Positions 3,505-62,738 of a DNA stretch of 64,000 nucleotides are shown one piece after another. The notes under the pieces are model-generated. The model was not told where the DNA came from. It did no database searches and worked only from the letters and a program-made list of their open reading frames with translations. Made by a program: the position numbers and the translations under genes. Where the stretch lies: assembly GCA_031422435.1 (NCBI GenBank), contig JANPLU010000101.1, positions 20,562 through 84,561 of the forward strand. The letters run 5' to 3'. Origin of the DNA: Acaryochloridaceae cyanobacterium VAR_48_metabat_390 (GTDB taxonomy: Bacteria > Cyanobacteriota > Cyanobacteriia > Thermosynechococcales > Thermosynechococcaceae). How positions within the stretch are numbered: position 1 is the stretch's first letter; every line of letters begins with the position of its first letter.

Positions 3505-4195
3505 GCTGTGTTCCTAGCCAGTCATCAACGGCACAGTATATCGTGGTTTGAACCGCTTTTCTATGCCTCAGGCTTAAGGATGCCGATTGCTGAATTAACT
3601 GCAAAATGGCATCCTTAATCGTTGATTAAACGGCTCTAGCGCACTGAAGCACTGGGGATGCTGGAGATTATCCCTATATTTTTGACATCAAATCGCTGAG
3701 GTGCAGAAGCCGTAAAGTAAAAGCCAAGCTGACTGCCTTCAACAGCATTGCCAGACTGCATTGGGGGAGACGTTGCGCACCACAGGTGACAAGGGTTTTG
3801 GCAGATACAGCAGGGCTTATGGTTAAGGCGACTGTACTTAAAAGCCCTGTGGTGATAGATAAAACTGCAAGAGATGCATTGATAGATTTCAGCATGGTGA
3901 TATCCTCTCAGGATCTTGATGAGAGATGGATCAGCGCGGAATCCATTAATGACGAGACACCTCGCTGCCAGCTCTATGACTTAACTCTAGGGATCACTTC
4001 TGAGATGAGGCCGAGATTTGTATAAACTGATACTGAACTTCGCCAAATCGCTGGGGAAGTTTTGATACTCAAAGGCTCTAGCGTTAACCCTTTTTCTGAA
4101 GTGGGTGGCGGATGGGCAATCGCATTTCTTCTTTGAGCAGGTTTGAGTTTCGTTCCTGATGCTGTGAATCGGCATACAAAATCAGGATGTCTTAT

Positions 4196-8338: not shown

Positions 8339-9139
8339 ATGATTACACCTAGTGTTCCAGTGGCTTTGCTTTGTGGGGGGAAAGGGACTCGTTTAAGAGA
8401 GGAAACGGAGTTTCGGCCTAAGCCAATGATTATGGTGGGAGATCGCCCCATGATCTGGCACATTATGAAAATTTATGCCCATTATGGCTTTACAGACTTC
8501 ATGCTATGTCTGGGCTACAAGGGCGATATGATTCGAGAATATTTTTTGAATTATGACTGGAACCATAGTGATTTATTGCTAGAGCTGGGCAGTAAGTCTA
8601 TCAAAACCCTGAACAGCAGCCATGATGAAGAAGATTGGCGGCTATGGCTAATTGATACTGGGCAAGAAACCATGACGGGTGGTCGTCTGAAGCGTCTGGG
8701 TCGCTACCTAGATAGCATTGGTGCCGATACGTTTTTAGGCACCTATGGAGATGGGGTTGCAGATGTAGATATACAGGCGCTGTTGTCGTATCATCGCAGT
8801 CACGGAAAGTTGGCAACGATGACGGCGGTTAGGCCACCGTCTCGGTTTGGTGAGCTTTCTTTTGATGGCAATTTGGTGAGTAATTTTAAGGAAAAGCCTC
8901 AGACGAGTGAGGGCTGGATTAATGGGGGGTATTTTGTGCTGCACCGAAAGGTTCTGGATTTGATTGAGTCTGACGATACGGTTTTTGAAGCTGAGCCTTT
9001 AAGCATCCTTTCAGATCAGGGTGAGTTGGCGGTGTACCGCCATGAAGGGTTTTGGCAGTGCATGGATACATACCGAGAGCTAGAACTGCTGATTTCGCTT
9101 TATTCGTCTGGTAAGGCGCGGTGGAAGCTATGGGCCTAA
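8339..9139 (+). CDS. rfbF: Glucose-1-phosphate cytidylyltransferase
   Basis: GGKGTRLREET, TMTGGRLKR, GFWQCMDT. Confidence 0.93.
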   Translation: MITPSVPVALLCGGKGTRLREETEFRPKPMIMVGDRPMIWHIMKIYAHYGFTDFMLCLGYKGDMIREYFLNYDWNHSDLLLELGSKSIKTLNSSHDEEDWRLWLIDTGQETMTGGRLKRLGRYLDSIGADTFLGTYGDGVADVDIQALLSYHRSHGKLATMTAVRPPSRFGELSFDGNLVSNFKEKPQTSEGWINGGYFVLHRKVLDLIESDDTVFEAEPLSILSDQGELAVYRHEGFWQCMDTYRELELLISLYSSGKARWKLWA

Positions 9140-23676: not shown

Positions 23677-24813
23677 ATGCTCAACACTACTATAAAAGCT
23701 GTCATAATATGGTCTACTTATGGCTCATATCATCTTGCTAGAGTACAAGCGTTAATCAATATTGGTTTTGAAGTTGATTGTATAAGTTATGCTTCGATGG
23801 ATCCTAAGTATCCTTTTTTTGCTTCAAGCTTAGCTAGTATAAAAGTAATTAATCAGTGTGACGCTAATGATATTAATTTTATATTCTCATTTATAAAAAC
23901 TTTCTTTATTCTTGTTAAGTCTAACCCCCATATAATTTTGACATGTGGATATGAACGACCCGAGTCTTTCTCATGTATTCTTTACTCAAAATTATTTTCG
24001 TGTAAATCACTTTTGCTTTTTGAAAATCAATTAGAGGATAAAAAGAGAAGTAAAATTATTGAACTCATTAAAAAATACTATATTCGTTTTTTTGATGGCA
24101 TCATTTGTGGTGGAAGTACGCATATTGAGTATCTTAAGCATCTTAAATATCCGCTTGATAGAGTTGTAACGGGTTATGACTCTGTAGACAATTCACGTAT
24201 TCAGTCTAGCAAAATACAAATTCATTCTCAAATCGAAAAGTCCTTATCACCTTTCCCCTTTTACTTTTTATGTATTGCACGGTTAATACACAAAAAAAAT
24301 CTAACTACGCTCATTCAGGCATACACTCTTTATAAAGAAAAAATTACTAAATATGAAGAGAAATGGAAATTAGTTATTGGTGGAGAAGGTTTTCTCCGAG
24401 AAGACCTTCTAAGTAAAATCTTTCAAAGCGATCTATCAAATGATGTATATCTTGCCGGACAAATTAATACTTTTGAGGATGTAGTTAACTATTACAGCTA
24501 TGCCAAGGCTTTTATACTGCCTAGCAACCATAGCGAACAATGGGGCTTAGTTGTTAATGAAGCAATGGCAGCAGGCTTACCCGTCATTGTCTCACAGCAG
24601 TGTGGATGCTCATCTGATCTCGTTCATGATGGAGTGAATGGCTTTACCTTTGATGGTAATTCAGCTGAGGATCTTAGTGAGCACATGCTATGGATGCATC
24701 TCAACCAAGAAAAACTATCCCAGATGGGGAAAGCATCTGAGGCAATAATATCAAAATTCTCAACATCAGTATTTGCTTCAAATGTAAAAACACTCTACAA
24801 GCGATTACAATGA
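23677..24813 (+). CDS. GT4 glycosyltransferase
   Basis: EQWGLVVNEAMAAGLPVIVS. Confidence 0.88.
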   Translation: MLNTTIKAVIIWSTYGSYHLARVQALINIGFEVDCISYASMDPKYPFFASSLASIKVINQCDANDINFIFSFIKTFFILVKSNPHIILTCGYERPESFSCILYSKLFSCKSLLLFENQLEDKKRSKIIELIKKYYIRFFDGIICGGSTHIEYLKHLKYPLDRVVTGYDSVDNSRIQSSKIQIHSQIEKSLSPFPFYFLCIARLIHKKNLTTLIQAYTLYKEKITKYEEKWKLVIGGEGFLREDLLSKIFQSDLSNDVYLAGQINTFEDVVNYYSYAKAFILPSNHSEQWGLVVNEAMAAGLPVIVSQQCGCSSDLVHDGVNGFTFDGNSAEDLSEHMLWMHLNQEKLSQMGKASEAIISKFSTSVFASNVKTLYKRLQ

Positions 24814-46554: not shown

Positions 46555-47139
46555 TTATTCTATATCGGGACTGCTTGGCTCGAATTTTACCTGTCGGTAT
46601 AGATCGGCGATCGCAATTTCTACGCCTACCGATTCAAGCTTTAAGCGATCATCCAGCGCATATTCTGACAATACCCATTGACCTGCCTCATTGCGCCGAA
46701 ACACCTCCACTCCTGGCTGCTCAACCTGCACCAAGATGTACTCTTGAAGTGCCGTAAACTTACGGTAATGAGCAAACTTAATGCCCCGATCAATGGCCTC
46801 AGTAGAAGGCGATAGTATCTCAATAATCAAACACGGAAACTGGACAAATCTGGGGTCTTTATCGCGTTCATCACAGGTGACAACGACATCTGGGTAAAAG
46901 AATTTTCGTCCCATCTCCACTTGAACTTTGACATCTACCATGTAGACTTCGCACGGTCGGTCCATTAAGACATCGTCTAAAAGCTTTGAAACATTAAGGG
47001 AAATTCGGTTATGGTTGCGAGTCGCCCCCGACATTGCGACGACTTCACCATCCCAATATTCATAGCGCTCTTCTTGGGTGGGTTCCCAATCGAGATATTC
47101 CTCAACGGTCATCATCAATCGATCCGATAGCGCAACCAT
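46555..47139 (-). CDS. Uma2 family endonuclease
   Basis: YEYWDGEVVAMSG, YPDVVV, IEILSPST. Confidence 0.9.
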   Translation of the reverse strand: MVALSDRLMMTVEEYLDWEPTQEERYEYWDGEVVAMSGATRNHNRISLNVSKLLDDVLMDRPCEVYMVDVKVQVEMGRKFFYPDVVVTCDERDKDPRFVQFPCLIIEILSPSTEAIDRGIKFAHYRKFTALQEYILVQVEQPGVEVFRRNEAGQWVLSEYALDDRLKLESVGVEIAIADLYRQVKFEPSSPDIE

Positions 47140-47317: not shown

Positions 47318-47809
47318 CTATACCTTGAGTACCCAAGCCTCGCGATTCTCTGCATTCACAAAAGAGGCTGGCACTACGGGAATCTTCACGCCCAAAGAAA
47401 CAAACGCAGCTCGAATGGCGGTTGCATGAGCGGATTCTGTGCTGCCAATGCTGGCTCCAGCGCTAATTAAAGCTGGGGTTTTAAGTTTAGCGACCTCTTG
47501 GGTGTAGGCGATCGCCGCATCGATTTCCAGCGCCAGCGCCAATTTTGCAATGTTGACATCACTGTCTACATTGCCTTCACCATTTTTGATGTAGGAAGAC
47601 ACATCGTAGCTAGATTCCGCCTTTACAGGGCTTCCGCCTAGGCTGCTGATTGCAGAGGTTAAGAGGTCGCGGTGCTGTTTGTGGTCGGCTTGGTTGGCGA
47701 GGGAGATCGCCAAGACGGCTTTACCCACATCCGTATTAGTCAGCTTGCCAGCGGCAAAGCTGTAGGCCCAAATGGCCTGATGCTCATAGAACAATGCATT
47801 GTTGAGAAT
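47318..47809 (-). pseudogene. Ferritin-like domain protein, 3' part (interrupted gene)
   Basis: ILNNALFYEHQAIWAY...H..H...LEIDAAIAY...ESAHA; joins in frame to 59989-60165. Confidence 0.9.
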
Positions 47810-47831
47810 CCCCAGTTAGATAACTTTACAG

Positions 47832-47996
47832 CTAACCCCTATAGTTTGGGATTCGTTTGTTAGTGAACCATGCCCATGAAGCCGTCGCCATCGCCGCGAT
47901 GATGCCCGTCACCTTTGGATAAACGCCGCACGAACTAAGCGCCCCACTGACCGAAGCCACAAAACCGAAAACCGAGGTGAGTCTATCCGTGTTCAT
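47832..47996 (-). CDS. Small two-TM protein, holin-like (54 aa, absent from the ORF track)
   Basis: MNTDRLTSVFGFVASVSGALSSCGVYPKVTGIIAAMATASWAWFTNKRIPNYRG; ATGA overlap with the upstream enzyme gene. Confidence 0.6.
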   Translation of the reverse strand: MNTDRLTSVFGFVASVSGALSSCGVYPKVTGIIAAMATASWAWFTNKRIPNYRG

Positions 47997-48538
47997 TGGT
48001 CATCCTGCCAAACAGAAACGTAAACATCGCCTTGCTCTACCAACGGTAGAATCTTGTCCCTCAAGTGGACATTGTGCAGCCTGAGACAGCCGAGCGTATT
48101 GAAAAGCTTTTGTAGCAATGCCCAAGCAAGAGGCCATCCGCAAGCCGTACCACCGCCGTGCATCATTAGACCAGCGCGAAAATTGCCGTCCTCATTGCCC
48201 TCAAGGTCGATAAGGTCAAAGCTGTACCATCCGTACTGCATGAGGGTGCGTTCATAGTTCGGGGAGCTGCCCACATCCTCATAGTCGCGGTAGACCTGCC
48301 CAATCCGGTAAAGACCAGGGGGCGTGTCTCCGCTGTTGGCTCTCCAGTCCGCACCCAGACCTTCAGCAAGACAGGGGATTGTGAAGAGACACATTCCATA
48401 GAAATCGAATGCTTTTAAGGTCTTAGACTGAGCATTGACCACCAGATGATAGTCACCCTTCTTAAAACCGAACTCTTGCGGCCTACGCCGTGGTGCAGTC
48501 AACATCAATCCAACCTCTCGTAATAGGGAACATTCCAA
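47993..48538 (-). CDS. L,D-transpeptidase-fold (YkuD-like) protein, putative endolysin
   Basis: DTPPGLY, MMHGGG...TLGCLRLHN (His and Cys catalytic motif); likely start at MLTAP. Confidence 0.75.
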   Translation of the reverse strand: MECSLLREVGLMLTAPRRRPQEFGFKKGDYHLVVNAQSKTLKAFDFYGMCLFTIPCLAEGLGADWRANSGDTPPGLYRIGQVYRDYEDVGSSPNYERTLMQYGWYSFDLIDLEGNEDGNFRAGLMMHGGGTACGWPLAWALLQKLFNTLGCLRLHNVHLRDKILPLVEQGDVYVSVWQDDQ

Positions 48539-48789
48539 GACCTAACCTGAACCGACTGATTTTTAGGATTATTATTCTCAGTCGAGGAGCGCTGCACTTT
48601 TCCTGCAAGGTCATTGCCTAACAGCAGGTTGCTGCCACCGATAAAGGTCAACGCCATTAGGATTCGGTCTAGACGAACCGTTAAGCTGCTGAGATTGCCG
48701 TTAGCAACTTTTATTTCAGCCATCAACCCGTCGCTAGCCTGCTTTGCGTCAGCCGCGATGTCTTTTAGGGATTGCTCATTTCTGTTCAT
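48505..48789 (-). CDS. Small coiled-coil plus hydrophobic-segment protein
   Basis: Tightly packed in the operon; hydrophobic ILMALTFIGG stretch. Confidence 0.55.
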   Translation of the reverse strand: MNRNEQSLKDIAADAKQASDGLMAEIKVANGNLSSLTVRLDRILMALTFIGGSNLLLGNDLAGKVQRSSTENNNPKNQSVQVRSWNVPYYERLD

Positions 48790-48792
48790 TTT

Positions 48793-50091
48793 TTATCTCC
48801 CCACGGCCTGCAAATAGGTTGTAATTGCTCCATTTATCGAAGTGCAATCAGCGTCAGTTATGCCAACGTCACCTTTAAGAAGCATCCAAAACTTAATGCC
48901 GCCTGTATTAAATTCACCGTTGCCAGACAATAAACGAATTTTATTGTTAGCCCTAACTACTGAATCGGATTCACGGCTAAAAGTGCTGTTATAAAAGAAC
49001 CTGTCTTTAATCTGTGTGCCATTTGCCGCCTTAGAATAAAGCGACATCAAGGCATCTAAAGGGTTAGGAAGACCTATATAAATATAAAAATTATTTACGC
49101 TGTGACAGCCGCCGTCAAATAGGTCTGTATCATCTCTAGCCATAGCTTTAAAAGAACCTTTAAACGTCCACAAAGGCTTGACATCATTTTTGTAAACGCC
49201 AGCAAATTTTAGAAACATTCCTCTAAAATTTGTAGCTGTCCAATGAGTATCTAAAAATGCATCAGATGGATAGCCTATGCCGCCATCTTCGACACTGGCA
49301 CCGCTAGCAGCGCTAAACGCACGAGTGCCAGCCCAATTTTCAAGAATGCCAGTTTGAGGATTCATCAAATTGAGAGACTGACTAGCTTCTGTAGTTCCCA
49401 TAAAAGGGTAAAGTGCAAAAATTTTGCCAGAAGACGCAAACTCGCCTAGATTAGCGACCAACTGATTCAAAGCATTTGTTTGAGCCGTGGTGAGCGTGTA
49501 ACCTTGTGCAGTCTGAGCCGATCTGTAAGCCTCAACAATCTCGGTAGGGGTTGGCGGTGCTGGGGGCACACCTAAAAGAGCATCAACTTGTGCTTTGGTG
49601 TAGTAATTACTGAGATCTGCAACGCCAGCGGCACCCGTATCGCCCTTGTCGCCTTTATCTCCCTTAAGTCCTTGAATACCTTGGGCACCAGCAACACCAG
49701 GTTCACCCGTATCACCTTTGTCACCCTTATCACCTTTGTCACCTTTTGCACCAGGGGCACCTGGTAGCAAGGTTGCATCCAGCGCCTCTATCCTGATATC
49801 CCAAGAAGTTTGACTTGGTAGCAGTCTAAAGCCGAGTTTACGCACCTCTAAAGACTCTGGCTGCTCCAAAATGAAGCTTTGAGGGTCTGCCTGATAGCTG
49901 AAATCGTCTTGGGTATAGATAAACCCCGTGATGTCAGCTTGGGCGATCGCCGCACTACTCTCTTGCAACTGACCATCCTGATTAAGGGGCTGACTCAAAT
50001 GCACCACCCTAAAGTAGCTGCCCACCAAAACATCAGTGAACTGCCACTGGTCAGACAGGGTGAAGGTGGCGATAGGTGTGAATAAGGTCAT
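48793..50091 (-). CDS. Collagen-repeat spike/fibre-like protein
   Basis: Beta-rich N-terminal domain, G-X-Y repeats (GAKGDKGDKGDKGDTGEPG...), DLSNYYTKAQVD, distinct C-terminal domain. Confidence 0.7.
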   Translation of the reverse strand: MTLFTPIATFTLSDQWQFTDVLVGSYFRVVHLSQPLNQDGQLQESSAAIAQADITGFIYTQDDFSYQADPQSFILEQPESLEVRKLGFRLLPSQTSWDIRIEALDATLLPGAPGAKGDKGDKGDKGDTGEPGVAGAQGIQGLKGDKGDKGDTGAAGVADLSNYYTKAQVDALLGVPPAPPTPTEIVEAYRSAQTAQGYTLTTAQTNALNQLVANLGEFASSGKIFALYPFMGTTEASQSLNLMNPQTGILENWAGTRAFSAASGASVEDGGIGYPSDAFLDTHWTATNFRGMFLKFAGVYKNDVKPLWTFKGSFKAMARDDTDLFDGGCHSVNNFYIYIGLPNPLDALMSLYSKAANGTQIKDRFFYNSTFSRESDSVVRANNKIRLLSGNGEFNTGGIKFWMLLKGDVGITDADCTSINGAITTYLQAVGR

Positions 50092-50441
50092 GGCACACGG
50101 GCTTCTAGGGTAATTTGCCAGTCAGACGATGATGGAACGCGAGTAAAGCGCCTAAGCCTGATTTGTGGCTCCCATCGGGCTATGCCATTGGAGCGCAACT
50201 CATCAGGAACTGAGATTCTAAAAATCTTTTTCTCAGCGCTGGGATATAAAGACCGAAAGGTAAATGAGGCATTCTCATCTACAAAGAACTGACGCAAGTA
50301 CGCCGTTCCCCGTGGGGCTGAGGTAAAGGTATGAGTGACGCGAATCAGAACAGTTTCAAGGTCAATAAGAATGCCATAGGCACCGCCAACAGCCTGCCAT
50401 TCTAGGCCAGGTTGAACGGTACCGAGGCTAACCCATGACAT
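50088..50441 (-). CDS. Small beta-rich virion-like protein
   Basis: Resembles the N-terminal domain of the collagen protein; ATGA overlap. Confidence 0.55.
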   Translation of the reverse strand: MSWVSLGTVQPGLEWQAVGGAYGILIDLETVLIRVTHTFTSAPRGTAYLRQFFVDENASFTFRSLYPSAEKKIFRISVPDELRSNGIARWEPQIRLRRFTRVPSSSDWQITLEARVP

Positions 50442-50705
50442 CTAGACCATCCCTGCCAACGCAAATTCCATGTCTTCTAGGTAATCGTCGGGGCTGATAT
50501 TGTCCTCTAACATGCAGTCGAGCAGGTCATCAGGATGCATTTCGCCTCTAACGATGTCTGACAATAGCCGCTGACGACGGAAATACTGATTCCAAAGCAC
50601 CTCGGGATCATCATCTGGGGTCTGAATTTGCTCAGGCTCAAGACTGAGAGCAGACCAAGCTTTAGCGCCATCCATTATGAAAAAGTTCCAGGGACGCAAG
50701 AACAA
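50442..50705 (-). CDS. Small acidic hypothetical protein
   Basis: In operon; probable start MDGAK at about 50675. Confidence 0.5.
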   Translation of the reverse strand: MFLRPWNFFIMDGAKAWSALSLEPEQIQTPDDDPEVLWNQYFRRQRLLSDIVRGEMHPDDLLDCMLEDNISPDDYLEDMEFALAGMV

Positions 50706-51202
50706 AGATATTCAGGGTTTGCGGCCTTCACACGACCGCGAATTGTCCGATATGCGGCATCTTCATCAATCACAATGGGAGAGCCTCCAGCGCCAAAGGG
50801 GTAAGTGTAAGACTTACCACCGTAAGTCCTGTAGCTCTTGCCCGTGAGCTGTGATGTTTTGCGAGTGCCCGTGCCTCGACCTTTGACGATTACGACTCTC
50901 GGAGCAATCCAGCCGGGTAAAAGAATCTGATTAGATGCGGCGGGTGCTTGAAAGGCATAGGTTTGAAAATAATTTCCTAAGTCACCTGTGTTGCCACGTC
51001 CACGCTGAACCTGAAGCACTTTTTTAGCCGTGTTTAGGCCAGGCATAAAGGGACGAACCCAGATTTCTAACCCAGATGAAGCAATTTGCTGTTTAGGGTA
51101 AGAAACCTCATTAGATCCGTCCAAGTACGCCAAAAGCTTCGTTTTGGCGCTGTTGCTGTTGCCTCGTAAGACTCCGAGGTATCTAGCCCCTCGTCTTTTC
51201 AT
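50675..51202 (-). CDS. Basic hypothetical protein, paralogue B (candidate capsid protein)
   Basis: Arg-rich N-terminus; colinear with 51205-51753. Confidence 0.65.
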   Translation of the reverse strand: MKRRGARYLGVLRGNSNSAKTKLLAYLDGSNEVSYPKQQIASSGLEIWVRPFMPGLNTAKKVLQVQRGRGNTGDLGNYFQTYAFQAPAASNQILLPGWIAPRVVIVKGRGTGTRKTSQLTGKSYRTYGGKSYTYPFGAGGSPIVIDEDAAYRTIRGRVKAANPEYLCSCVPGTFS

Positions 51203-51204
51203 GG

Positions 51205-51753
51205 CTAGACGCTATAGCTACCAGGCACAAAGCTGCACTGATTTAAGGCGCCTGTCGTACCACTTTTAACATTGGCTCGGATCTTTAAGAACACCGCGTC
51301 TTCACTCTTTTCGTCAGCAGCCGTACCTTCTCCAAAGGGTACAGATATTGTTTTGCCGCCATATTTGCGGTATTTCAATCCGCTAATTTTGGAGGTTTCA
51401 GATGTGCCAGCTCCTGCAGTTCTGCCTGTGGTAATCGCGGCGCGAGGAGATAAAACACCAGACAAAACGAGCTTAGAATCTTCAGCAGGCGCTGTCTCGC
51501 TGACATAAGGCGCTGCAAGAGCCACAATAGTATCGTTACCGGATTGAACAAACTGCAAAAGCTTGACACCAGCACCAAGGGGAAGCACAAAGGGACGCAC
51601 CCATACTGAAGCACGGGCGGGTCGGTTGCCTGCACGTTCAGGATATTCGAGATCCACATCTCCATTGAGATAGGCGAGAAGCTTAGTCTTCGCGCTAGGA
51701 CCTCTTTTGCCTCGCAAAATGTTTAGATACCGAGTGCCAGATCGACGTGCCAT
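51205..51753 (-). CDS. Basic hypothetical protein, paralogue A (candidate capsid protein)
   Basis: Shared RYL..LRG...AKTKLLAYL.G, WVRPF, YGGK...PFG, CS.VPG. Confidence 0.65.
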   Translation of the reverse strand: MARRSGTRYLNILRGKRGPSAKTKLLAYLNGDVDLEYPERAGNRPARASVWVRPFVLPLGAGVKLLQFVQSGNDTIVALAAPYVSETAPAEDSKLVLSGVLSPRAAITTGRTAGAGTSETSKISGLKYRKYGGKTISVPFGEGTAADEKSEDAVFLKIRANVKSGTTGALNQCSFVPGSYSV

Positions 51754-51859
51754 TTGAAAATCCTATTTTTTATCAGAAAGCTTATGGAAATCACCTTAAC
51801 TCGCTGAAGTTGGCGCAAATATCCATCGAACCCTATAGGGTTCGGGCGCTGCAAATAAG

Positions 51860-52675
51860 CTAAAAACTGACAAGTCCAGATTTTTCCGAAAATCGTCTTG
51901 TGACTAAAAAAATAGGGTTAGGAAGACCATGAATAGCAACGCTGGCATTATGAAACCGGACGTAAACTGTAGGACGTTCAACTGGCTTGTTTCTGCTTTT
52001 TCCCAAAATTATTTGAGTTCCAGGGGTAGAAGGAAACGTTTTTTTGGGTTCATGAGTCGTCACATAGTCATCGTTGTAAGGGCGCTGGGCACAGTCACAT
52101 ACTTTTCTGATAACCTCTATTCCTTCGGCTTCACTAAACGCGTAAATTTGCAGATTTAAGCCTGACTCAAGGTTTTTATAGGTCACAAGAATTTTGCCTT
52201 TGCGCCATCTGTAACCATTTGCAGCGCCTAGCTCTGATTTAATGCGGTTTGCGATGGCGTTCAGTTCTGCTTCGGTCAAGGTTGTGGAAGATTCGTTAAC
52301 CAGTCTGAAGCTGATTTCAGCGCGAGATGGAGAACGACCACTAGGCACACTGTCAGGATCTTGCTTGAAATAGAGATTGACCTGCGGTTTGTATTTGACC
52401 TGAGAATCATAATCAGCGACCGGAATTCCGTAGATGGGCGCTTGGAGGTCTGCGGCTTTTCTCGCATGGAAGAAGAACAGATGCAGCCTGAGCAGGGTCA
52501 TGTCTACGGTGTCGTCATCATCCAGCAGACAGGCGCGTTTGAGTGCCCCTCTAGGGATGGTTAGGGCATCGTCATCGGTAATATCACTGAACTCTTCACG
52601 AACGAGCTTGTTATGGTAATTTCTCAGCACGTCTTGAAGGTGTTCCCATTTTGAAAACCCTTGAGGTAAGGCCAT
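51860..52675 (-). CDS. Hypothetical protein (candidate structural)
   Basis: 271-aa ORF in the co-oriented operon. Confidence 0.65.
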   Translation of the reverse strand: MALPQGFSKWEHLQDVLRNYHNKLVREEFSDITDDDALTIPRGALKRACLLDDDDTVDMTLLRLHLFFFHARKAADLQAPIYGIPVADYDSQVKYKPQVNLYFKQDPDSVPSGRSPSRAEISFRLVNESSTTLTEAELNAIANRIKSELGAANGYRWRKGKILVTYKNLESGLNLQIYAFSEAEGIEVIRKVCDCAQRPYNDDYVTTHEPKKTFPSTPGTQIILGKSRNKPVERPTVYVRFHNASVAIHGLPNPIFLVTRRFSEKSGLVSF

Positions 52676-52678
52676 TTT

Positions 52679-55330
52679 CTACACTCCTGGTTTATTAAGG
52701 TCAGTGGCTTCGATGTTGGGAGAGGCGCTTACGGTTTTAGATGCCGTTGCCGCTTCTTTCTGCGGTTGGTTCTCGGTCTGAGATTTCTCGGTGCCCAAGC
52801 CTAGGGACTTGCCTAGTTCGTCTTTTTGAGAGGCGATCTGAGTGACAGTCTCCTGGGCGCTCAGAATTTCGCTGGCGACGCTATCGATTTGTGAAACGGT
52901 GTTCTCAACGGTTTCGAGTGCCTGGGTAAATTTGTTGTCAAAGTTAGGGCTAGGGTTCATCCAGGCGTAGGATGACTCACTGACGACGCCGGAGCGCTTC
53001 AGGGCGTTACCGATTCGAGCATTCCAGCCGCCGATGGTTTCTAGGGCGCTGACGACGGAAAAGCGTAGAGACTGGATGCTGTTCCCGAGGTTCGCGGCTG
53101 CCTGATAAATACGATTTGCTTTTTTGAAGTTTGTTGAAAGCGTGGTGTAGTTCTCTGTGCCGATGGTTTCTTTAACGGTGTTCTCAACTGATTTACCAAT
53201 GAGTTCGCCTAAATCATAGGCATTGCCGCCGTCGTCTCTAATGCCAAAAACTGACAGCCCGTTTGAGAGCATTGATAGCAACGTTTGCCCAAGGTCACGG
53301 CTGAGCATGAGCGCGTTATGCAGAGTTGAAATAAGGGTAAGGACGCTCACGAGCTGCCCGAGTCGTGCCCATTTTGCAAATTTGCCTAGTTTTTCTGCAA
53401 CCCCGCTTACGGCTTGACCAACTTTACCGAGCCGGTCGAAAGTGCGCTGTCCTTGGCCTGATAGACCGCCTTCAACTTGTTGACCTAGCTTGTTATTGAT
53501 TGTGGTCAGCAGCCCCAAGTCTAGGTATTGGGCAAAGCGCTCAAAATAGTTGGCAATCGCTTCAGAGTTATCAGCCGCTTTTTTAGAGTTGTCTCTGGCA
53601 TCTTGTGCGGCGCTTTCGATAGATGCGTTACATGCATTTCCTTGACATTTGCCTCCTGACTTTGGGGCTTGAGTGGGCGTAAAAGATGGCGGGGTGAAAC
53701 TATCCAAGGGGTTTTTCTCCTTATCGGGGTCAGTGCCGAAGGGGTTCGGGGTTGGGTTAGGAATAATGGGCGCGTAGGGCGGCGGGGGCGGTGGAGATGC
53801 GGGGGATGTTGGCGAAAAGGGGATGCTTGGCGGCGGCGCAAAGCCGCTATCGTCGCCAGTGTCTGTTCCAGGGCTAGTGCCAGGTTCACTTGCTCCAGTT
53901 CCAGGGCTGGGCACAGGACCCGGCACGGATGGAGCAGGAAGCGTTGTAGGGATAGCTGGCGATGGCAATGGAACGGGCACCGCTGGGACGGGCTGCGGTG
54001 TGGGATATGGCACTACTGGAATGGGTTCCGGTACTGCTGGCACTGGAGGAGGATCGGGGACTGTTGGAGACGGCTGCGGTGAAGGAGAAGGAACGACAGG
54101 AACGGGGGGCGGTACTGCTGGCGCAGGGCTAGGTTCTGGGATTGTGGGGTTTGGACTGGGCTGCGGTACTGGCTGCGGATAGGGGTCAATAAATGGCGGC
54201 GATGTTGGGCTAGGACGAAACGGGAAGTCCTCCTCAGTGCCGTCCGGATCTGGATCTACGCCAGGGGGCAGCTGCGGTGATGGTGATTCTTCAGGTTCTG
54301 GTTCTTCGGGCGATTCCTTGGGCTTAGGTTCTGCGGGGGATGGTGGGCCTGGTTCGTCTTCTGGTGGCTCTGGGTACTCAGGGTCTGGCAGTCCTGGGTA
54401 GCGTAGCGGCAGGTCAGGCGGTATCGTGTCAGGAATCTTAATCGGCGGCGGGGCAACCGTTGGAGGTGCTGCTGAATAGGGCGGCGTAAAGATGGGTTTT
54501 TCGTTGGGTGCGCGATCTCCGTCACACCGTGCAACGCATCTAAAGCCGTATTGAGATATGGCTGTCCATTCAATCCCACCAAAACGGGATAAGGCAGTAT
54601 TAAGACCCGCTGTCTTCCATGCAACGCTGTTGTAATATTCGATGTACTCAAGAGTGCTGGGCGGATCCATGTTTTGACGAGTTGCCAAGATAGGCCCTTC
54701 CCCGTCTGCTTCCATTTCTATGTCATAGTCTGGACCTACCCGAGGATCGTTTAGAGGGTTTGACCGCCTGAATAATACAGTCCATTTGTAGGCAGCAAAA
54801 AACGTACTCGCATCTTTAACAGGCCAAGTTTCACGGGGCTGTGCAGGTACATTTTTGCCTGTTGGGTCTTGTAGTCCAGATGGGGTATGAGGTGATGGGG
54901 CGATACCAGGGAGTCCGCCAGGGCTTCCTTTTTTTGGTCTGAAGATCGGGAATATAAAGGGAACGCCCAGTGACGGAGGGGGCGGGGGAAGGGGAATCGG
55001 AATCGCTATCGGCTGAGCGTCGGGGTAAAACGGGATTGCCCCAGGGCGGCGCACTCCACGCTTAGGGATAGGTACGGCAGCTGGGGGAGGCGCGGTTCTG
55101 CCACCAGGTACTGCACGACCAGGGACTGAACCACGTCCAGGCGCTGAACCACGTCCAGGCGCACCGGAAACGGGGCGACCACGACCAGGCGGCGCCAGCG
55201 CTCCAGGCGCTGCTGGATAAATGCCCTGATGTTGAAGTAATTCTTTGCCGAGCAGAAGGCCACCAGCAATAAAGGGTAGCGCCTCAGCGACGGCACCACC
55301 CGCTAACGGGAGCGCTAGGGGTAACGGCAT
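52679..55330 (-). CDS. Large proline-rich protein with helical/hydrophobic C-terminus
   Basis: Hydrophobic N-terminus, long Pro-rich tracts, C-terminal amphipathic helices. Confidence 0.7.
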   Translation of the reverse strand: MPLPLALPLAGGAVAEALPFIAGGLLLGKELLQHQGIYPAAPGALAPPGRGRPVSGAPGRGSAPGRGSVPGRAVPGGRTAPPPAAVPIPKRGVRRPGAIPFYPDAQPIAIPIPLPPPPPSLGVPFIFPIFRPKKGSPGGLPGIAPSPHTPSGLQDPTGKNVPAQPRETWPVKDASTFFAAYKWTVLFRRSNPLNDPRVGPDYDIEMEADGEGPILATRQNMDPPSTLEYIEYYNSVAWKTAGLNTALSRFGGIEWTAISQYGFRCVARCDGDRAPNEKPIFTPPYSAAPPTVAPPPIKIPDTIPPDLPLRYPGLPDPEYPEPPEDEPGPPSPAEPKPKESPEEPEPEESPSPQLPPGVDPDPDGTEEDFPFRPSPTSPPFIDPYPQPVPQPSPNPTIPEPSPAPAVPPPVPVVPSPSPQPSPTVPDPPPVPAVPEPIPVVPYPTPQPVPAVPVPLPSPAIPTTLPAPSVPGPVPSPGTGASEPGTSPGTDTGDDSGFAPPPSIPFSPTSPASPPPPPPYAPIIPNPTPNPFGTDPDKEKNPLDSFTPPSFTPTQAPKSGGKCQGNACNASIESAAQDARDNSKKAADNSEAIANYFERFAQYLDLGLLTTINNKLGQQVEGGLSGQGQRTFDRLGKVGQAVSGVAEKLGKFAKWARLGQLVSVLTLISTLHNALMLSRDLGQTLLSMLSNGLSVFGIRDDGGNAYDLGELIGKSVENTVKETIGTENYTTLSTNFKKANRIYQAAANLGNSIQSLRFSVVSALETIGGWNARIGNALKRSGVVSESSYAWMNPSPNFDNKFTQALETVENTVSQIDSVASEILSAQETVTQIASQKDELGKSLGLGTEKSQTENQPQKEAATASKTVSASPNIEATDLNKPGV

Positions 55331-55336
55331 TAACGT

Positions 55337-55642
55337 CTAGCTCTTGAAGCTGGCAGGAATCGGAGTGGCGCTCAGTTCTTGGACGTAGTTCCAGATTTGG
55401 TTGCCGCCGCCTTGCCAGTCTTTTGAGAGGGGGACTGAGACGCGCGAGATGTTGCGCCAGGTCGCAGGGTCTGACGCGGTGATGTAAAACGGGGCGCTGG
55501 ATGCGGTGCGGGTTAGGCTTCCAGTTGTTTCGACTGCGGTCTGGTCAGGGTTTAGGTTACTGAGCAGCGTTGATGCCCAAGCTTCAAGCTTTTCGACGGT
55601 GTTGATTTCTGAAGGGATGTCTGAAGGGGTGAAGGCGGTCAT
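55337..55642 (-). CDS. Hypothetical protein, first gene of the leftward operon
   Basis: 101-aa ORF, 6 bp from the next gene. Confidence 0.65.
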   Translation of the reverse strand: MTAFTPSDIPSEINTVEKLEAWASTLLSNLNPDQTAVETTGSLTRTASSAPFYITASDPATWRNISRVSVPLSKDWQGGGNQIWNYVQELSATPIPASFKS

Positions 55643-55840
55643 GCTGTTTTTTTGGTAGCTACACTGCCTATTTATTCACCTATAAAAAATCATTTCTACT
55701 CTGTCTTTTAAGTAAAAGATAGAGTTATTGTGTTAGCCTTATCGCGTTACACATCAACCATTACAGCGTTTTACACTCACTACTTGAAAAGCCTTTTCTC
55801 TCTGTTTTAGTGTTCCTTAAATTAAAAGACCTAGTAATCA

Positions 55841-56412
55841 ATGAAACTAAATAGGCACGGAAAGGCTACTGTGTTCTCTGAGTCTGACTATTTGAAGTTT
55901 CGAGACAAGGTTACGTCTAAGACCCATCGCCTTATTTTTGACTTCGGCTGGTGGACGGGCGAACGAATGGGCGCGATTCTGCTGCTAACGGTGGATAACG
56001 TCTACAGCAACCCTGCCAAGAGTGAGCCGCGCGATTATGTGACCTATCCAGCTTCTACTCGCAAAGACCGAAGGACGCGCCAAGTGAGAATCCATCCCGA
56101 GCTGGCGACAAATCTATGGGCGTATCGCCCACCGACAGAAGGCTTTCTGTTTCAGCGTTTGAGAAACCCGGGGCAGGCGATTTCGATGAGTGATATTGAC
56201 GCGCTGATGCGCTATTACCTACAAAAGCTGGGTTGGCAGGAGCGGGGCTACGCTACACACTCGTTCCGTCGCTCGTTTATCACGCGGCTCCATGAGAATG
56301 GGACAGACCCGATTGTGATGCAGCAGCTTACGGGACACTCGAACCTACAGAATCTGATCGCTATGTGGAGGTTGACCCGAATCGGGTTGACCGTGCGCTG
56401 CTGTCTCTTTAG
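55841..56412 (+). pseudogene. Tyrosine recombinase (catalytic domain only), frameshifted before the catalytic Tyr
   Basis: TGER, K, HSFRR, TGH present; RYVEVDPNRVDRALLSL* lies in the -1 frame from 56359. Confidence 0.8.
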
Positions 56413-56950
56413 GGGCTTTGCCTAGATAGCGCGATCGCTTCTTCCCGTTCTCATCACGCCACCGTTGCACTAGATAAGGGCCGTAGGTTTTTCCTTTAAT
56501 TGTTTTGTAGTTTTTCTCTACCCAATACTCTCCAAAGACTGAATCTGTAACGCTTTGAAGTGCTTTATCGCTAATCTTGTCCTGGTCTTGCCCACCAAAT
56601 AAGTCATCGTCTGTTTTTTGGTGGGCAGATTGAGGGCGATCGCCTCCCTCGATGCCACTTTTAGAAAAATCAGGTAACGAGTCATCAAGGGTTTCAGGCG
56701 AATTGTTTATGGCCACAACATCATTTGAGGCAGAATTGCTCTCATCCATGAGCGGGGCGGGGTGATAAAACAGCGGGTTATAGTGCAGCCCATCTCTGCA
56801 ATAAAACCAGCCAGCACCACAGAAGCATTTAATCTCTGCGTAACCTATTGGGATAAGACCGCCGCCGTCGTCGTCCTGGTCTTGCCCATCAAAAGCTTCG
56901 TGATAGAGAACTTTTCCGAGTAGGGTGAGCTGGTCATAGGTTAGGGTCAT
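56345..56950 (-). CDS. Hypothetical protein with basic C-terminal nucleic-acid-binding-like motif
   Basis: KTIKGKTYGPYLVQRWRDENGKKRSRYLGK. Confidence 0.55.
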   Translation of the reverse strand: MTLTYDQLTLLGKVLYHEAFDGQDQDDDGGGLIPIGYAEIKCFCGAGWFYCRDGLHYNPLFYHPAPLMDESNSASNDVVAINNSPETLDDSLPDFSKSGIEGGDRPQSAHQKTDDDLFGGQDQDKISDKALQSVTDSVFGEYWVEKNYKTIKGKTYGPYLVQRWRDENGKKRSRYLGKAPKETAAHGQPDSGQPPHSDQIL

Positions 56951-57251
56951 CGGCGGCGATCGCTTCTATTGCGACGGGGTTTATGCTGAAGTTTTCTCTG
57001 ACTAGGCGGCGGCACCTGAAAACCGAGCGGGGTCTTACGGAACTCTTTGATAACGTCCATGAATGCCAGTGCAACAATAGACCAGATGTACAGCAGCATG
57101 GCAAGACAAAACCCAGCCACTACAAGATTTAGGGATAGATAGATGAGGTTTTGGAGAAGTTAAATCATCGTTCTGAGGTAACGCGTCTTTCTCAGGGTGA
57201 ACACACAACAGACCAAAACTAACCCCATGCAATCAAGGAGATCGCATGGGG

Positions 57252-57620
57252 TTAGTTTTCTGAATCAGTAATCTCATTGAGCCGCTCAATGGTTGCTTCA
57301 AGAAGTTGAATGCGTTGCTTTTGCTGCTCAACTTCATTCTGCAACCTAGCCAACCGCAAACGCTCCTCTTCTAGCAGTTGGCTAATGACTCCCCCATTAT
57401 TTGGGCTTGCTGTGGAGTGGCATTCCCGATCATGCCCCTCGCGTATCTCTCTATCAATTCTGATCTGCTCAGTCCCTCTTGAACTGCTCTTTCGTCCAGA
57501 CTCTGAATGCTCAGCTCGGTTAGGGAGATGTTTAATCGTTTCTTTGGTTCTTCGTATGAACCGTGCTTTACTCCGGTCTTTCTTTGAGCCATTTCTTTTT
57601 TCCATAGTTGGTTCATACAC
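57252..57620 (-). CDS. Coiled-coil protein overlapping the RHH gene in another frame
   Basis: ISQLLEEERLRLARLQNEVEQQKQRIQLLEATIERL heptads; true start uncertain. Confidence 0.4.
   Translation of the reverse strand: MYEPTMEKRNGSKKDRSKARFIRRTKETIKHLPNRAEHSESGRKSSSRGTEQIRIDREIREGHDRECHSTASPNNGGVISQLLEEERLRLARLQNEVEQQKQRIQLLEATIERLNEITDSEN
57371..57592 (-). CDS. Ribbon-helix-helix (CopG-like) repressor
   Basis: KKRLNISLTELSIQSLDERAVQEGLSRSELIERYAR. Confidence 0.8.
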   Translation of the reverse strand: MAQRKTGVKHGSYEEPKKRLNISLTELSIQSLDERAVQEGLSRSELIERYARGMIGNATPQQAQIMGESLANC

Positions 57621-57711
57621 AAGATATTAACTGAACTCTTACACAACTACCATTACATTATTGCGCATTCTTACACAAGATGTTACCTTTGGGTGGCATC
57701 TTGTGTAAGAA
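57616..57711. promoter_or_regulatory. Divergent promoter region with repeated TACACAA operator-like sites
   Basis: TACACAA at 57616, 57640, 57672 and inverted at 57701; 15-bp inverted repeat 57668-57711; TTGCGC-N17-TACCTT with extended TG at 57661-57689. Confidence 0.6.
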
Positions 57712-57723
57712 ATAATTGTTCTG

Positions 57724-57876
57724 ATGAAACAACTCACCGTTCGTTACCAGCCTGACTCTGTTGAAGCGTTCTATGAAGGAAAAATTCTTTATCGCTGGTC
57801 AAACCCTGTGTTTGCAAGACAGCAGATAGCCGAGATCCAGCTCAAGGGCTGGACAATCATCCGAGAGGGCGTATGA
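57724..57876 (+). CDS. Small hypothetical protein (50 aa, absent from the ORF track)
   Basis: MKQLTVRYQPDSVEAFYEGKILYRW...; ATGA overlap with the next ORF. Confidence 0.55.
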   Translation: MKQLTVRYQPDSVEAFYEGKILYRWSNPVFARQQIAEIQLKGWTIIREGV

Positions 57877-58154
57877 CCGACAACTTCTATAGAGATATGT
57901 GCTTGCTGCTCTTTACAGCCCTAGACATGGCTTCAGAAGAAATTGCTACCGACCGCGAAGACCAGGACAGGTTCAGAAGTCTTTACATCATTAAGGCTTC
58001 TACGTTTCTCAAAAGTGATGAGAGCCTTTCCTACCGCGCTCAATGCCTTGAACATCTCAGACAACAACACAGACAGGAGCTATTGAAGAGTGTTTATAAG
58101 ACTTCCAGGCAATCGAATCATCAATCTGGCGAGAGTGAATCAAATCACCTATAG
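57873..58154 (+). CDS. Hypothetical protein
   Basis: 93-aa ORF coupled to the previous one. Confidence 0.55.
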   Translation: MTDNFYRDMCLLLFTALDMASEEIATDREDQDRFRSLYIIKASTFLKSDESLSYRAQCLEHLRQQHRQELLKSVYKTSRQSNHQSGESESNHL

Positions 58155-58359
58155 CTTTGACCTAAGTGAAGTCACCATCTTCTGGGCAACGGGTGATTGT
58201 GAACTTCATTTAGTTAAAGGAGATGCGATCGCATCTCCTTTACGCCATAGACAGGCTGAATGACCATCGTAAGCAGCAGCTCATTGACGTGCAGCAGTTC
58301 GTAGACCCCCATGCAAACGCTGAAACGGTTTTGTATGGAAGCGAATCACTTTTCTAAAA

Positions 58360-58417
58360 ACCCGCCTGATGAGTCTTAAATAGACGAAACTTTCCCAACG
58401 TTGGGAAAGTCGCGGGT
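58360..58417 (+). ncRNA. Type I hammerhead ribozyme
   Basis: acccgc-CUGAUGA-gucu(uaaau)agac-GAAA-cuuuccca(acgu)ugggaaag-UC-gcgggu; full core and three stems; predicted cleavage after C58411. Confidence 0.9.
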
Positions 58418-58615
58418 ACCCTTCCAAAAGGTACCAGCCCTAAATGCGATCGCTAATCGGGCTTAGTTGAGAATTGGCCTTGAATTATCGGGCTTTCAAA
58501 ATTCACGGCCTTGAATGCGATCGCGTTTAGTAGAGCTTTGTCGGTTCTCACAGTGAATAGGCCACGCATTAGGCGGGCTTCGGGAGATTCTATGAACCGT
58601 ATGGCAAGGCTTAAC
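58412..58615 (+). ncRNA. Bridge RNA (5' hairpin, target-binding loop, donor-binding loop)
   Basis: Guides gttgagaatt and tcaaaattc match the empty target; acagtgaat and gggagattc match the element ends; each pair is enclosed by a stem. Confidence 0.85.
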
Positions 58616-58670
58616 CGCCGAGCAAGCTTAAGTTTGGAACCCAACTCCTAGGACAAAAGCGAAAGCAAAT

Positions 58671-59873
58671 ATGCGAATTTTGGGACTCGACGTGTGTCGT
58701 GGCTCCGTTGTGGGCTGCTTATTTACAGAACTTCCAGATAACTGCTTAGGCTGGTTTAGAGCCAATAAACAATCCATTGAGAGCTACGAATCGACTCGTG
58801 AAGACGTTGAAAGACTGCTGGCACTGAAGCCAGACATGGTGATTCTAGAACCCACGGGCGTACACTACGCACGGCTTTGGGCAGACCATCTCATTAAAGC
58901 CGGAGTGATTGTGCGTTGGATTGGGCACGCACAACTAAAGTACGAACGCCTTACCCTGCGAATGCCCAATAAGAACGACGCGGCTGATGCCTGTGTGATG
59001 GCCTACTACGGGCACAAACATCTTTTAGAGCCTGAATACTTCCTCAAGTTCGATATTCATGGGGTCGCTGCATCCATGCGATCGCTCGGTTTGCAGCTCA
59101 AACACCTCAACAGTCAAAGCACCATCCTGACCAATCGAATCAGACAGAACCTAGCCCATGAATGGCCTGAAGTTCATCGGTATCAAACCACGGGGCATAA
59201 TGACACAACCCCGCCACTATGGCGCTACATCGCAGGGGGTAAGGTCGCAAAGATAACCAATACCAAATATTCAAAATCTCTGGGCAACACCATCGGCAGT
59301 GGTCTTTCTGAGTTCACCATTGACCACGCGATCGCACTCACTGAAAATGAAGCCCGTCAGATCAAGATTGAAAAGATGCTCTTTCATCTGGTCTACAGCC
59401 CTGACTTCGAGATGTATAACGAAGCCTTTGACCTGTTTGGTTTTGGCTTGCGGGTTCGGGCAATGGTGCTGAGTCATATTTTCCCAATCGAGAGCTTTCT
59501 AGGGGCTGATGATAAGCCTATCGTGCAATACGTTGACTCCACTGGAGTGAGGAAAAAGAGTAAACGCGATCGCAGTTTAGCCGCCTTTAAGCTGGCCTGC
59601 GGGATGGGCATGATTGAGGATAGTTCAGGGGATAAAGAAGTCTTTAAAGCTGGAGGTTCTGCTCTAGTGCGGGTGGCGCTGTGGCAATGGTGCTTTACGC
59701 ATCTAGAAGCCTATGGCGGTAAGAGAGCAACCGATAGCGAAGTCTGTAAAAAGCTGGTGACGTTCCTGCATACGAGAAAGTCTGCTAGTGGTTCACGGAT
59801 TCGGGTTGTACGATCTGCAACGGTGGCGCGGGCAACTGAGATGTTATTTAAGGAACTGGTCAAGAGGATTTAA
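58671..59873 (+). CDS. IS110-family (DEDD/Piv-like) bridge recombinase
   Basis: ILGLDV, LEPTG, KNDAADA (DEDD tetrad); C-terminal CGMG...SSG catalytic Ser motif; GG..VR..LWQW. Confidence 0.9.
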   Translation: MRILGLDVCRGSVVGCLFTELPDNCLGWFRANKQSIESYESTREDVERLLALKPDMVILEPTGVHYARLWADHLIKAGVIVRWIGHAQLKYERLTLRMPNKNDAADACVMAYYGHKHLLEPEYFLKFDIHGVAASMRSLGLQLKHLNSQSTILTNRIRQNLAHEWPEVHRYQTTGHNDTTPPLWRYIAGGKVAKITNTKYSKSLGNTIGSGLSEFTIDHAIALTENEARQIKIEKMLFHLVYSPDFEMYNEAFDLFGFGLRVRAMVLSHIFPIESFLGADDKPIVQYVDSTGVRKKSKRDRSLAAFKLACGMGMIEDSSGDKEVFKAGGSALVRVALWQWCFTHLEAYGGKRATDSEVCKKLVTFLHTRKSASGSRIRVVRSATVARATEMLFKELVKRI

Positions 59874-59892
59874 TCCGGTTTTATCATCTGCC

Positions 59893-59933
59893 CACCAAAA
59901 AGCCACCGTCTCTCAATCGGTGGCTTTTTGGTG
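59893..59933 (+). terminator. Strong bidirectional terminator-like hairpin at the element right end
   Basis: caccaaaaagccaccg...cggtggctttttggtg, 16-bp perfect inverted repeat. Confidence 0.75.
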
Positions 59934-59988
59934 AGTTTGGAAGATAGGAAAGGCTATGCAGGCCTGGTAACGATCTACTACAGTGAAT

Positions 59989-60165
59989 TTTGACATCGTT
60001 CTGTTTAGAAGGGGTCGCAGCATCCGCCCGACCTGCCAGCAGCGGTAAGCCCAGCGCACTCACAATGCCGCCTGCGACCCCAGCCATACTCCCCGTCACC
60101 AAAACATCGCGGCGGGAAACACCCTTGCGTCGAGGACGGTCTAGGTCGTAGTTATATTCGTTCAT
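59989..60165 (-). pseudogene. Ferritin-like domain protein, 5' part with Tat-like signal (interrupted gene)
   Basis: MNEY...SRRDVL...AGRADAA-TPSKQNDVK; continues as ILNNALFYE at 47809. Confidence 0.88.
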
Positions 60166-62180: not shown

Positions 62181-62738
62181 TTACATTTTGAGCCAGTCGA
62201 AAACTTGATCGACCGTTAGCACTAGGTCAATGCTGTCTAACAGAATTAGTGCATCATTTTCATGCCGAAGTTCCGGCTGCTGGTGGGGCTGAAACAGGAG
62301 AATTGAGCGATCGCCTGGATCTACCAGCCATCCCAACGCACAGCCATGCTTGAGACAGTGAAGAATATTCCCCGTCACGCGGTTAGGGCTTTGGTCTGGA
62401 GACAGAATTTCAATCGTCCAATCTGGAGCAGACAAGACATCATCTAAGGGTTCGCTATTGTGATCGAGCCGAATGTTCTCCCATCGCAAAACTGCTATGT
62501 CTGGAATAATAGACCTGCCGCCGAAGGTACAGGGTAGTTCAGGAAAAGCATAGGCAATTCGACGATCTTCTGCGACTGAATTGATAGTGTTAATCAATTT
62601 TCCCTGAAGTCGAGAATGTCGCGTTTTGGGCATTGGTTTTTGAGTAATTCTCCCGTCAACGTATTCGCTAACAGGCTTTGTTTCTGGCAGCTTTAGAAAT
62701 TCATCTAACGTTAGTAGTTGAGATGGGGTTTGCACCAT
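62181..62738 (-). CDS. Uma2 family endonuclease, between gltB and gltD
   Basis: [25 protein letters not shown]. Confidence 0.88.

Follow-up and report, generated by a model that had tools for sequence, protein, structure and literature searches.

A ferritin-like gene of a cyanobacterium is split by a 12-kb element with an IS110 bridge recombinase whose guide RNA is probably freed by a hammerhead ribozyme

The window considered here, a stretch of 64,000 nucleotides from Acaryochloridaceae cyanobacterium VAR_48_metabat_390 (contig JANPLU010000101.1, positions 20,562 to 84,561; all coordinates below count from its first letter), holds a ferritin-like gene with a Tat signal that has been split at the bases GAAT by an element of 12,179 bp. 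The 3' part of the gene (47318-47809, minus strand) encodes the C-terminal part of the protein and matches Ferritin_2 (PF13668, E 2.6e-17); the 5' part, which carries the Tat signal and the right arm of the insertion target (59985-60165, minus strand), passes the model TIGR01409 with 19.1 bits against a cut-off of 16.7. Between them lie, reading rightward, small open reading frames (ORFs), a hammerhead ribozyme, a bridge RNA and the gene for an IS110-family recombinase and, reading leftward, an operon of ten genes. What kind of element is this, and how does it find its place? Judging from the sequence, we think it quite likely that the 12,179 bp form one mobile, probably provirus-like unit and that its integrase is an IS110 bridge recombinase.

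Copies of GAAT stand at 47806-47809 and 59985-59988, and the junctions differ one base beyond them on either side. Removal of the 12,179 bp in silico yields a frame of 222 amino acids (aa) without stops. A four-base match is not unique at this junction, in-frame joins of 219 and 223 aa sharing four bases as well, and the 222-aa join was therefore tested against homologues, empty sites and contigs. Its alignment with 14 intact homologues shows no gap at the junction (the alignment took 14 of the 19 non-self loci). In a genome of the same genus, G001, the ferritin-like gene is intact, its protein is also 222 aa, the same target is present and the two flank matches at the empty site overlap by 4 bases; and public contigs from runs X3 and X5, which come from two studies, skip from 47805 to 59985 exactly, or 12,179 bases, with four letters that fit either side. 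The element is single-copy in the assembly. Most of this had been proposed in an earlier note on the same DNA—the insert and its GAAT site, the continuous Tat-signal protein left by excision, homologues running on across the junction, a comparison of the locus in related strains—and these points have stood. Its four-base core has stood at this site and not for the family: across the 11 elements, the studied one included, that could be fully bounded, the bases common to both ends are GAAT in seven, GAA in three and GA in one, and because they vary in this way, we read the family core as GA(A), with the GAAT of the ferritin-like site partly specific to the target.

The recombinase gene (58671-59873, plus strand) encodes 400 aa and belongs to NF051857 (398.5 bits against a cut-off of 180). 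D7, E60, D103, D106 and S319, which we take by analogy with IS621 to have the catalytic roles, are kept in 51-52 of 52 relatives; the nearest named record is from Thermosynechococcaceae, and a PDB sequence search with the enzyme gave no match. Behind the gene, a hairpin with an A-run before it and a T-run after it (59898-59930) is a candidate terminator, which would probably also stop transcripts coming in from the host. In one relative (L030, 15524-16693), the recombinase has an internal stop; that locus shows the weakest guide match (14/18) and has a DnaB-like helicase in its element.

Ahead of the recombinase gene lies a predicted bridge RNA (58412-58612, plus strand, its 3' end uncertain) with a 5' hairpin, a target-binding loop and a donor-binding loop; the folding z is -3.07 for this region and -4.83 with the ribozyme included. 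Four guides, all on the plus strand, stand in the order expected of a bridge RNA. The left target guide (58466-58474) matches the left arm of the target plus the core, GTTGAGAAT (47801-47809, plus strand), at 9 of 9 bases; the right target guide (58496-58504) matches the reverse complement of core and right flank, again at 9/9; the left donor guide (58550-58558) matches the right end of the element, which is donor left arm plus core, ACAGTGAAT (59980-59988, plus strand), also at 9/9; and the right donor guide (58582-58590) matches the left end, core plus donor right arm, GAATCCCCAG (47806-47815, plus strand), at 7/9, the value found in all 11 fully bounded elements, which share this conserved start. 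The three perfect 9-mers occur once each within the element, that of the left target guide at 58466. The two ends are 12 kb apart, and the left one is 10.6 kb away from the RNA; since it is recognised at that distance, the donor read by the RNA would be the whole element. The left donor guide varies together with the right end in L036, L042 and L112. On every sequence feature tested, the element agrees with an IS110 bridge system, and the IS110 chemistry and RNA guidance that had been supposed for it are borne out, the first by the NF051857 score, the short core and the scarless empty site and the second by the guides and their covariation over the 11 elements; the bridge RNA itself, the hammerhead, a frameshifted tyrosine recombinase and the element family lie beyond the earlier note. 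The genome has just one more exact copy of the 14-bp target, which stands unoccupied at 24751-24764 (minus strand) inside a 378-aa gene that is glycosyltransferase-like in appearance. Five relatives (L021 at 8685-8900, L127, L126, L110 and L115) have repeated loop modules in divergent guide regions behind the hammerhead, possibly multi-guide bridge RNAs.

Directly 5' of the bridge RNA is a type I hammerhead ribozyme (58361-58416, plus strand), with CUGAUGA at 58366-58372, GAAA at 58386-58389 and GUC at 58409-58411. Its core is complete (CUGANGA, GAAA, NUH) with three stems, and the predicted cut falls between 58411 and 58412, at the foot of the first bridge-RNA hairpin; Rfam matches the type I hammerhead at 58360-58417 (E 7.4e-05). 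Of 58 recombinase loci, 54 had enough upstream DNA for a structure-based scan (the other 4 were dropped), which found the core with its three stems in 33 of the 54 and in 0 of 479 control stretches. When 28 of the 33 were aligned (five near-duplicates or long-stem cases were left out), 93% of the alignment cells were paired and 8 of 13 pairs showed two-sided changes; in stem III, these make up 6 of 7 pairs, stem II being counted at one pair only, and the G-C pairs beside the cut do not vary in any of the 28. In the 33 loci, the cut lies 165-340 nt 5' of the recombinase start, and a same-strand stop falls within -12 to +40 nt of the hammerhead in 21, as compared with 1 of 33 on the other strand. 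At the studied locus, a 44-codon frame ends 3 nt before the ribozyme. A junction promoter of the IS621 kind is unavailable 10.6 kb from the left end, and the hammerhead, therefore, probably cuts the guide RNA out of the operon transcript. In four loci without a hammerhead (L086, L092, L093 and L116), another conserved nested hairpin stands right behind the upstream stop codon and is possibly an alternative processing signal.

How far does the guide travel with the site? The family analysis used 80 stretches around matches to the recombinase, which occurs in 44 of 401 genomes of the class, and to a 271-aa protein that marks the leftward module and was found in 42 of 401 genomes for the phylum and, within the family, in 6 of 48. 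For 23 of 52 recombinase loci, the right junction could be called from the donor guide alone, and in 16 of these 23, the locus's own right target guide equals its own flank at 6/6 bases beyond GA, something seen in 0 of 506 cross pairs. The 11 fully bounded elements measure 8.3-15.4 kb and have the same left-end motif at 11 different targets; each scores 14-18 of 18 against its own target (10 of the 11 at 16 or more), cross pairs reaching at most 14 with a mean of 11.7 (n=110). The motif is unique in 9 of the 11, and the left end was therefore picked there without the target guide; in L041 and L113, which have several, the guide match picked among them. A twelfth bounded element is probably L055, and in L100, L112, L113 and L119, the same ends enclose other or more diverged cargo. 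These comparisons show that the guides change with the landing site, and mutation of the target loop would retarget lineages. The recombinase of G001 is 94% identical to the studied enzyme, and the element of G001 occupies a site that is empty here (600 of 600 bases aligned, 93%); we infer a guide change in that genome, whose target loop is unassembled. Because the ferritin-like site is empty in G001, X3 and X5 and the site used in G001 is empty here, a recent arrival is supported by the sequences, as the earlier note had suggested. At L101 (518-1066), the right end overlaps the end of a cas1 gene.

In two public runs identical to the window and possibly its source, X1 and X2, a contig spans exactly 47806-59988 and breaks at both element ends, the flank contigs end one word-length inside the element, and the element contig is deeper than its flanks (14.6 versus 7.3 and 10.3; 8.9 versus 6.7 and 7.1). 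The depth and the breaks hint at extra copies with other neighbours. The empty-site joint is absent among the 15 of 41 joints listed for these runs. Searching for the pattern of joined element ends gave 65 metagenome or viral loci, in 7 of which an IS110 gene ends directly before it; in L170 and L186, the recombinase stands just before the joined ends and module genes follow. At one further locus, L157 (about 6238), the joined-end motif belongs to another element, which has a tyrosine recombinase and a long gene of primase-like appearance; some of its ORFs resemble an inovirus ATPase and replication protein by eye, its 14 kb give no IS110 match, and it could be a second type of virus that uses these ends in trans. 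The 29-bp tandem repeat arrays of L141 and L185, which match the junction pattern without element genes, look unrelated.

The rest of the element is cargo. From the left end, all on the minus strand, come a 181-aa YkuD (L,D-transpeptidase-like) cell-wall enzyme (47993-48538; E 2.6e-4, 22 bits, just below the 23.4 cut-off), which may act as a lysin; a 94-aa protein with a weakly hydrophobic stretch and no family in profile scans (48505-48789), which one might speculate is holin-like; a 432-aa collagen-repeat protein, phage tail-fibre-like and matched only in the collagen region (48793-50091); four genes for 117, 87, 175 and 182 aa (50088-51753), the last two being basic paralogues (net charge +17 and +11) with no clear fold match; the 271-aa marker (51860-52675), confidently modelled at pLDDT 90, without a family or clear fold match and with 693 representatives when clustered at 50%; a proline-rich 883-aa protein with a conserved C-terminal region (52679-55330); and a conserved 101-aa module protein, the first gene of the leftward operon (55337-55642). 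Beyond it is a small tyrosine recombinase (55841-56425, plus strand), frameshifted here just before the catalytic-tyrosine motif and whole in all 8 of the relatives examined; it is not what defines the element ends and may resolve dimers. A 201-aa protein with a short DUF1678 match (56345-56950, minus strand) is followed by a ribbon-helix-helix regulator (57371-57646) overlapped by a 122-aa coiled-coil frame (together 57252-57646, minus strand), a 20-pair palindrome between the divergent operons that is a candidate operator or promoter (57668-57711) and small rightward ORFs of 50, 93, 42 and 44 aa (57724-58357, plus strand). A promoter scan found no excess over shuffled sequence. Related modules carry YkuD, amidase, M23, collagen or phage-tail-repeat genes; in L104, L108, L110, L115 and L120, the structural module is reversed relative to the IS110 gene, and L028 has a TIR-domain gene near the left end (3511-4314) that could be defence cargo. 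Uma2-type genes lie near the insertion at 46555-47139 (by Pfam) and 62181-62738 (by eye), and others lie beside the elements L028 and L112.

Is the element a virus? Its status as one is inferred from gene content, and we lean somewhat towards the view that it makes particles. PHROGs gave one weak match among 114 members, and a search of the Atlas gave no named family. Neither the 271-aa protein nor the recombinase had a relative in exact-pattern scans of IMG/VR or in a search of 50,697 phage records, scans so insensitive that absence is not implied; of seven IMG/VR loci with the junction pattern, none had element genes. A simple scan for repeats gave no CRISPR array for the genome. The models of the 271-aa and 182-aa proteins, both confident and 2 of about 8 candidates, show no capsid-like fold (best Z 5.4 and 4.6), and a 2H-phosphoesterase-like fold (Z up to 4.8) was set aside for want of a conserved histidine. 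A marker protein 91% identical to the studied one, P0001, sits on a public contig of 12,178 bp, near the element's length, and many other marker matches are on contigs of 10-14 kb. A primase-helicase is frequent in sister elements: of 46 module loci, 15 have IS110 and no primase-helicase, 16 the reverse, 3 both and 12 neither (Fisher p 0.013, a value inflated by the 9 of 16 that supplied queries, the 8 fetched for IS110 and the non-independence of kin). On these counts and on the single-strand copy-out reported for IS621 rests a bolder reading, which we consider rather doubtful: a small cyanobacterial provirus family with a capsid of unknown fold, most of whose RNA-guided members have dropped the primase-helicase, the ribozyme-released bridge RNA coupling site choice to single-stranded copy-out.

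Much also weighs against our picture of a provirus-like unit with a ribozyme-freed guide, and it is fair to set it out together. Junction calls failed at 29 of the 52 loci, the module is present in only 10 of 24 loci chosen by recombinase, and an end finder that uses no motif was unreliable, ranking the true pair third here, so its calls were unused. The module also occurs, without IS110, on two Nostocales plasmids with ParA/ParB, and profile and fold scans recognised no capsid, packaging ATPase or replication protein in the element. For the ribozyme, the Rfam score of 32.5 bits is below the gathering score of 34, Rfam recovers it in 1 of 17 loci scanned (the studied locus alone), and 21 of the 54 loci lack a hammerhead, with at least 8 changes between presence and absence forced on a quick tree. 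Finally, the element's circle joint is absent among the 15 joints listed of 41; the joined ends in metagenomes may be circles or tandem copies, and would count on this side if tandem; and in L152, L154, L175 and L144, a perfect donor-like junction opens the cargo with no IS110 gene upstream, which could mean insertion at a half-match or donor-like site or a small non-autonomous remnant.

Of the rival explanations, the strongest, unlikely in our judgement and yet to be taken seriously, keeps the recombinase and ribozyme as described and holds that this is an expanded cargo IS110 or an integrative plasmid, its genes making a surface or transfer apparatus and no particle. The absence of a capsid-like fold in the two modelled proteins, the empty search of phage records, the plasmid-borne modules and the large plasmid-derived IS110 elements already described (Hu 2026, preprint 10.64898/2026.08.14.744561) would all suit it. 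Even in distant hosts, however, the genes keep one order, cell-wall hydrolases and proteins with collagen or phage-tail repeats coming at the distal end, and this, with the divergent regulator and the primase-helicases of sister elements, fits a small temperate virus better than cargo picked up piecemeal.

Less probable still is that the hammerhead is real and has another task, for instance to uncouple the recombinase message or make it less stable, or to process multimeric transcripts, while the bridge RNA works without it. The loci that lack a hammerhead speak for this, as L028, L100, L112 and L113 among them still show guide-matched junctions; from such loci and the label changes, it follows that the ribozyme is not required family-wide and that other solutions exist. 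Against it, we note that in 33 loci, the cut keeps to its place ahead of the recombinase, at the foot of the first bridge-RNA hairpin, and that the pairs beside it are invariant.

We regard as very improbable the earlier note's suggestion of a switch, in which stress excision restores the ferritin-like gene as in the nifD, fdxN and hupL elements. Exact removal on both strands would indeed restore the 222-aa frame, and post-excision junctions of IS621 are detectable (Hiraizumi 2026, PMC13626964). Both halves of the gene are intact, but recent arrival accounts for that; G001 keeps the gene whole, with an identical target, and has its element elsewhere; the second perfect target is unoccupied; and the relatives have ten different targets, for only 2 of which the reconstructed empty site lies in a frame open for at least 35 codons on both sides, the other 8 being outside long frames. 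If the element leaves as IS621 is reported to, mainly by a single-stranded copy, the gene would not be repaired. As remote, and largely refuted, is the idea that a compact IS110 hit the gene and a separate prophage then entered its left end by the tyrosine recombinase, which is intact in relatives, present in 12 of 24 recombinase-chosen loci and part of a module also found without IS110: the order is shared by 11 elements across several families, each at a site of its own and each with its first cargo some 20-400 bp inward of the conserved left end, the left-end motif never stands within 2.6 kb upstream of any recombinase scanned, the joined ends of L170 and L186 place the recombinase directly before cargo genes, and the left-end contig of G001 runs into the same cargo gene region.

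Elements of the nifD/fdxN/hupL kind, found in heterocyst-forming cyanobacteria, use tyrosine or serine recombinases, fixed sites and developmental excision. The studied element resembles them as a kilobase insert in coding sequence with a short direct repeat and a recombinase near one end, and it differs in that its site is specified by RNA and varies among relatives; with no conserved site in one gene across relatives, identity with that type is ruled out. A compact IS110 (about 1.5 kb, recombinase only) is ruled out by 11 elements of 8.3-15.4 kb with many genes.

The published systems are compared here as the accessible text of the cited papers describes them. Like IS621, the element has a DEDD plus serine recombinase, an upstream non-coding RNA with target and donor loops, a short core, no long att core and, in the proposed mechanism, a circle made by end joining. 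Unlike IS621, it is 12 kb (versus about 1.3-1.5 kb), has the core GA(A) (versus CT) and an enzyme of clade NF051857, keeps its RNA 10.6 kb from the left end, with no adjacent junction promoter, and places a natural hammerhead before that RNA. Transcription of the IS621 RNA starts at a promoter that the circle junction creates, and in the genome there is weak read-through (Hiraizumi 2026, PMC13626964); IS621 is reported to leave mainly as a single-stranded copy, the donor being retained (Xie 2026 preprint), post-excision junctions being detected as well (Hiraizumi 2026). The ribozyme mentions in Durrant 2024 (PMC11208160), in its accessible text, concern an engineered HDV ribozyme; the COMPASS preprint handles bridge RNAs and hammerheads separately; PMC13626063 mentions neither 'IS110' nor 'bridge'; and the literature searched, mostly outside subscription papers and preprint supplements, holds no report of a hammerhead linked to a bridge RNA. 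The complete core, three stems, GUC triplet and open stem I are those of the type I hammerheads of Rfam (RF00163, RF03152), from which this one differs in being coupled to the 5' end of a DNA-recombination guide RNA.

Large units carried by IS110 are not new in themselves (Hu 2026; PMC11437467). The expanded IS110s of Hu 2026 are, like this element, far above 2 kb, moved whole and flanked by sequences that the guides match; they grew by progressive additions, mostly of plasmid DNA, and often keep one canonical boundary, whereas the studied element has a canonical boundary on either side and a fixed module for its cargo. The accessible main text of that preprint does not contain 'cyanobacter', 'ribozyme', 'tyrosine', 'virus' or 'viral'; its supplements may list such loci. 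The closest precedent is given by inoviruses with an IS110 enzyme (Thermus phiOH16, Zuza8 and Zuza27; PMC11437467), virus-sized and with IS110 at one end as presumed integrase, and Neisseria Nf is thought to integrate by its own IS110 enzyme (Kawai 2005, as cited in PMC11437467). Those phages are filamentous, and the role of IS110 in them was inferred from gene position with no guide analysis in the accessible text. The 16 ORFs of the element have no Pfam, PHROG or NCBIfam match to a Zot-like ATPase or an HUH replication protein, which rules out an inovirus; no small membrane coat gene was recognised in the element, and the leftward operon is too tightly packed to house many more genes.

Put together, a provirus-like unit of this kind might work as follows. 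Transcription of the rightward operon would begin close to the 57668-57711 palindrome, with the ribbon-helix-helix regulator probably controlling it, and would cover the small ORFs, the ribozyme, the bridge RNA and the recombinase. The hammerhead would cut after C58411 and give the bridge RNA a defined 5' end, in place of the promoter that IS621 makes at its junction. Recombinase and RNA would close the element into a circle, its right end joined to its left, through either copy-out or cut-out. The 14 bp spelled out in the target loop would then decide where the circle inserts, and a lineage whose loop mutates would move elsewhere. The leftward operon would encode a particle or other transfer apparatus, and the ferritin-like gene would have been knocked out as a by-product of the guide that this lineage happened to carry.

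As far as the literature searched goes, the coupling of hammerhead and bridge RNA, the retargeting of a virus-sized unit at the level of its guide and the element family are new, and preprint supplements and subscription papers could change that. The coupling would answer how a guide buried in an operon, far from any promoter made by end joining, obtains a defined 5' end, and the natural cassette of hammerhead, bridge RNA and recombinase offers a design for programmable insertion from one transcript, with GA(A) as its core and a target of about 14 bp. Surveys of IS110 based on Pfam would probably miss the whole NF051857 clade, since the enzyme scores below the PF01548 cut-off and has no PF02371 match, and the COMPASS methods, as described in the preprint's accessible text, filter on PF01548 and PF02371. 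Here, then, is a gene module widespread in cyanobacteria (42 of 401 genomes) and not found in the virus collections searched, together with base-level evidence, including a pair of congeneric genomes in which the site filled in one is empty in the other and vice versa, suggesting that a virus-sized unit with an RNA-programmed integrase changes its site by guide mutation. If the copy-out reading, doubtful as it is, were true, integration and the initiation of replication would be one RNA-programmed reaction.

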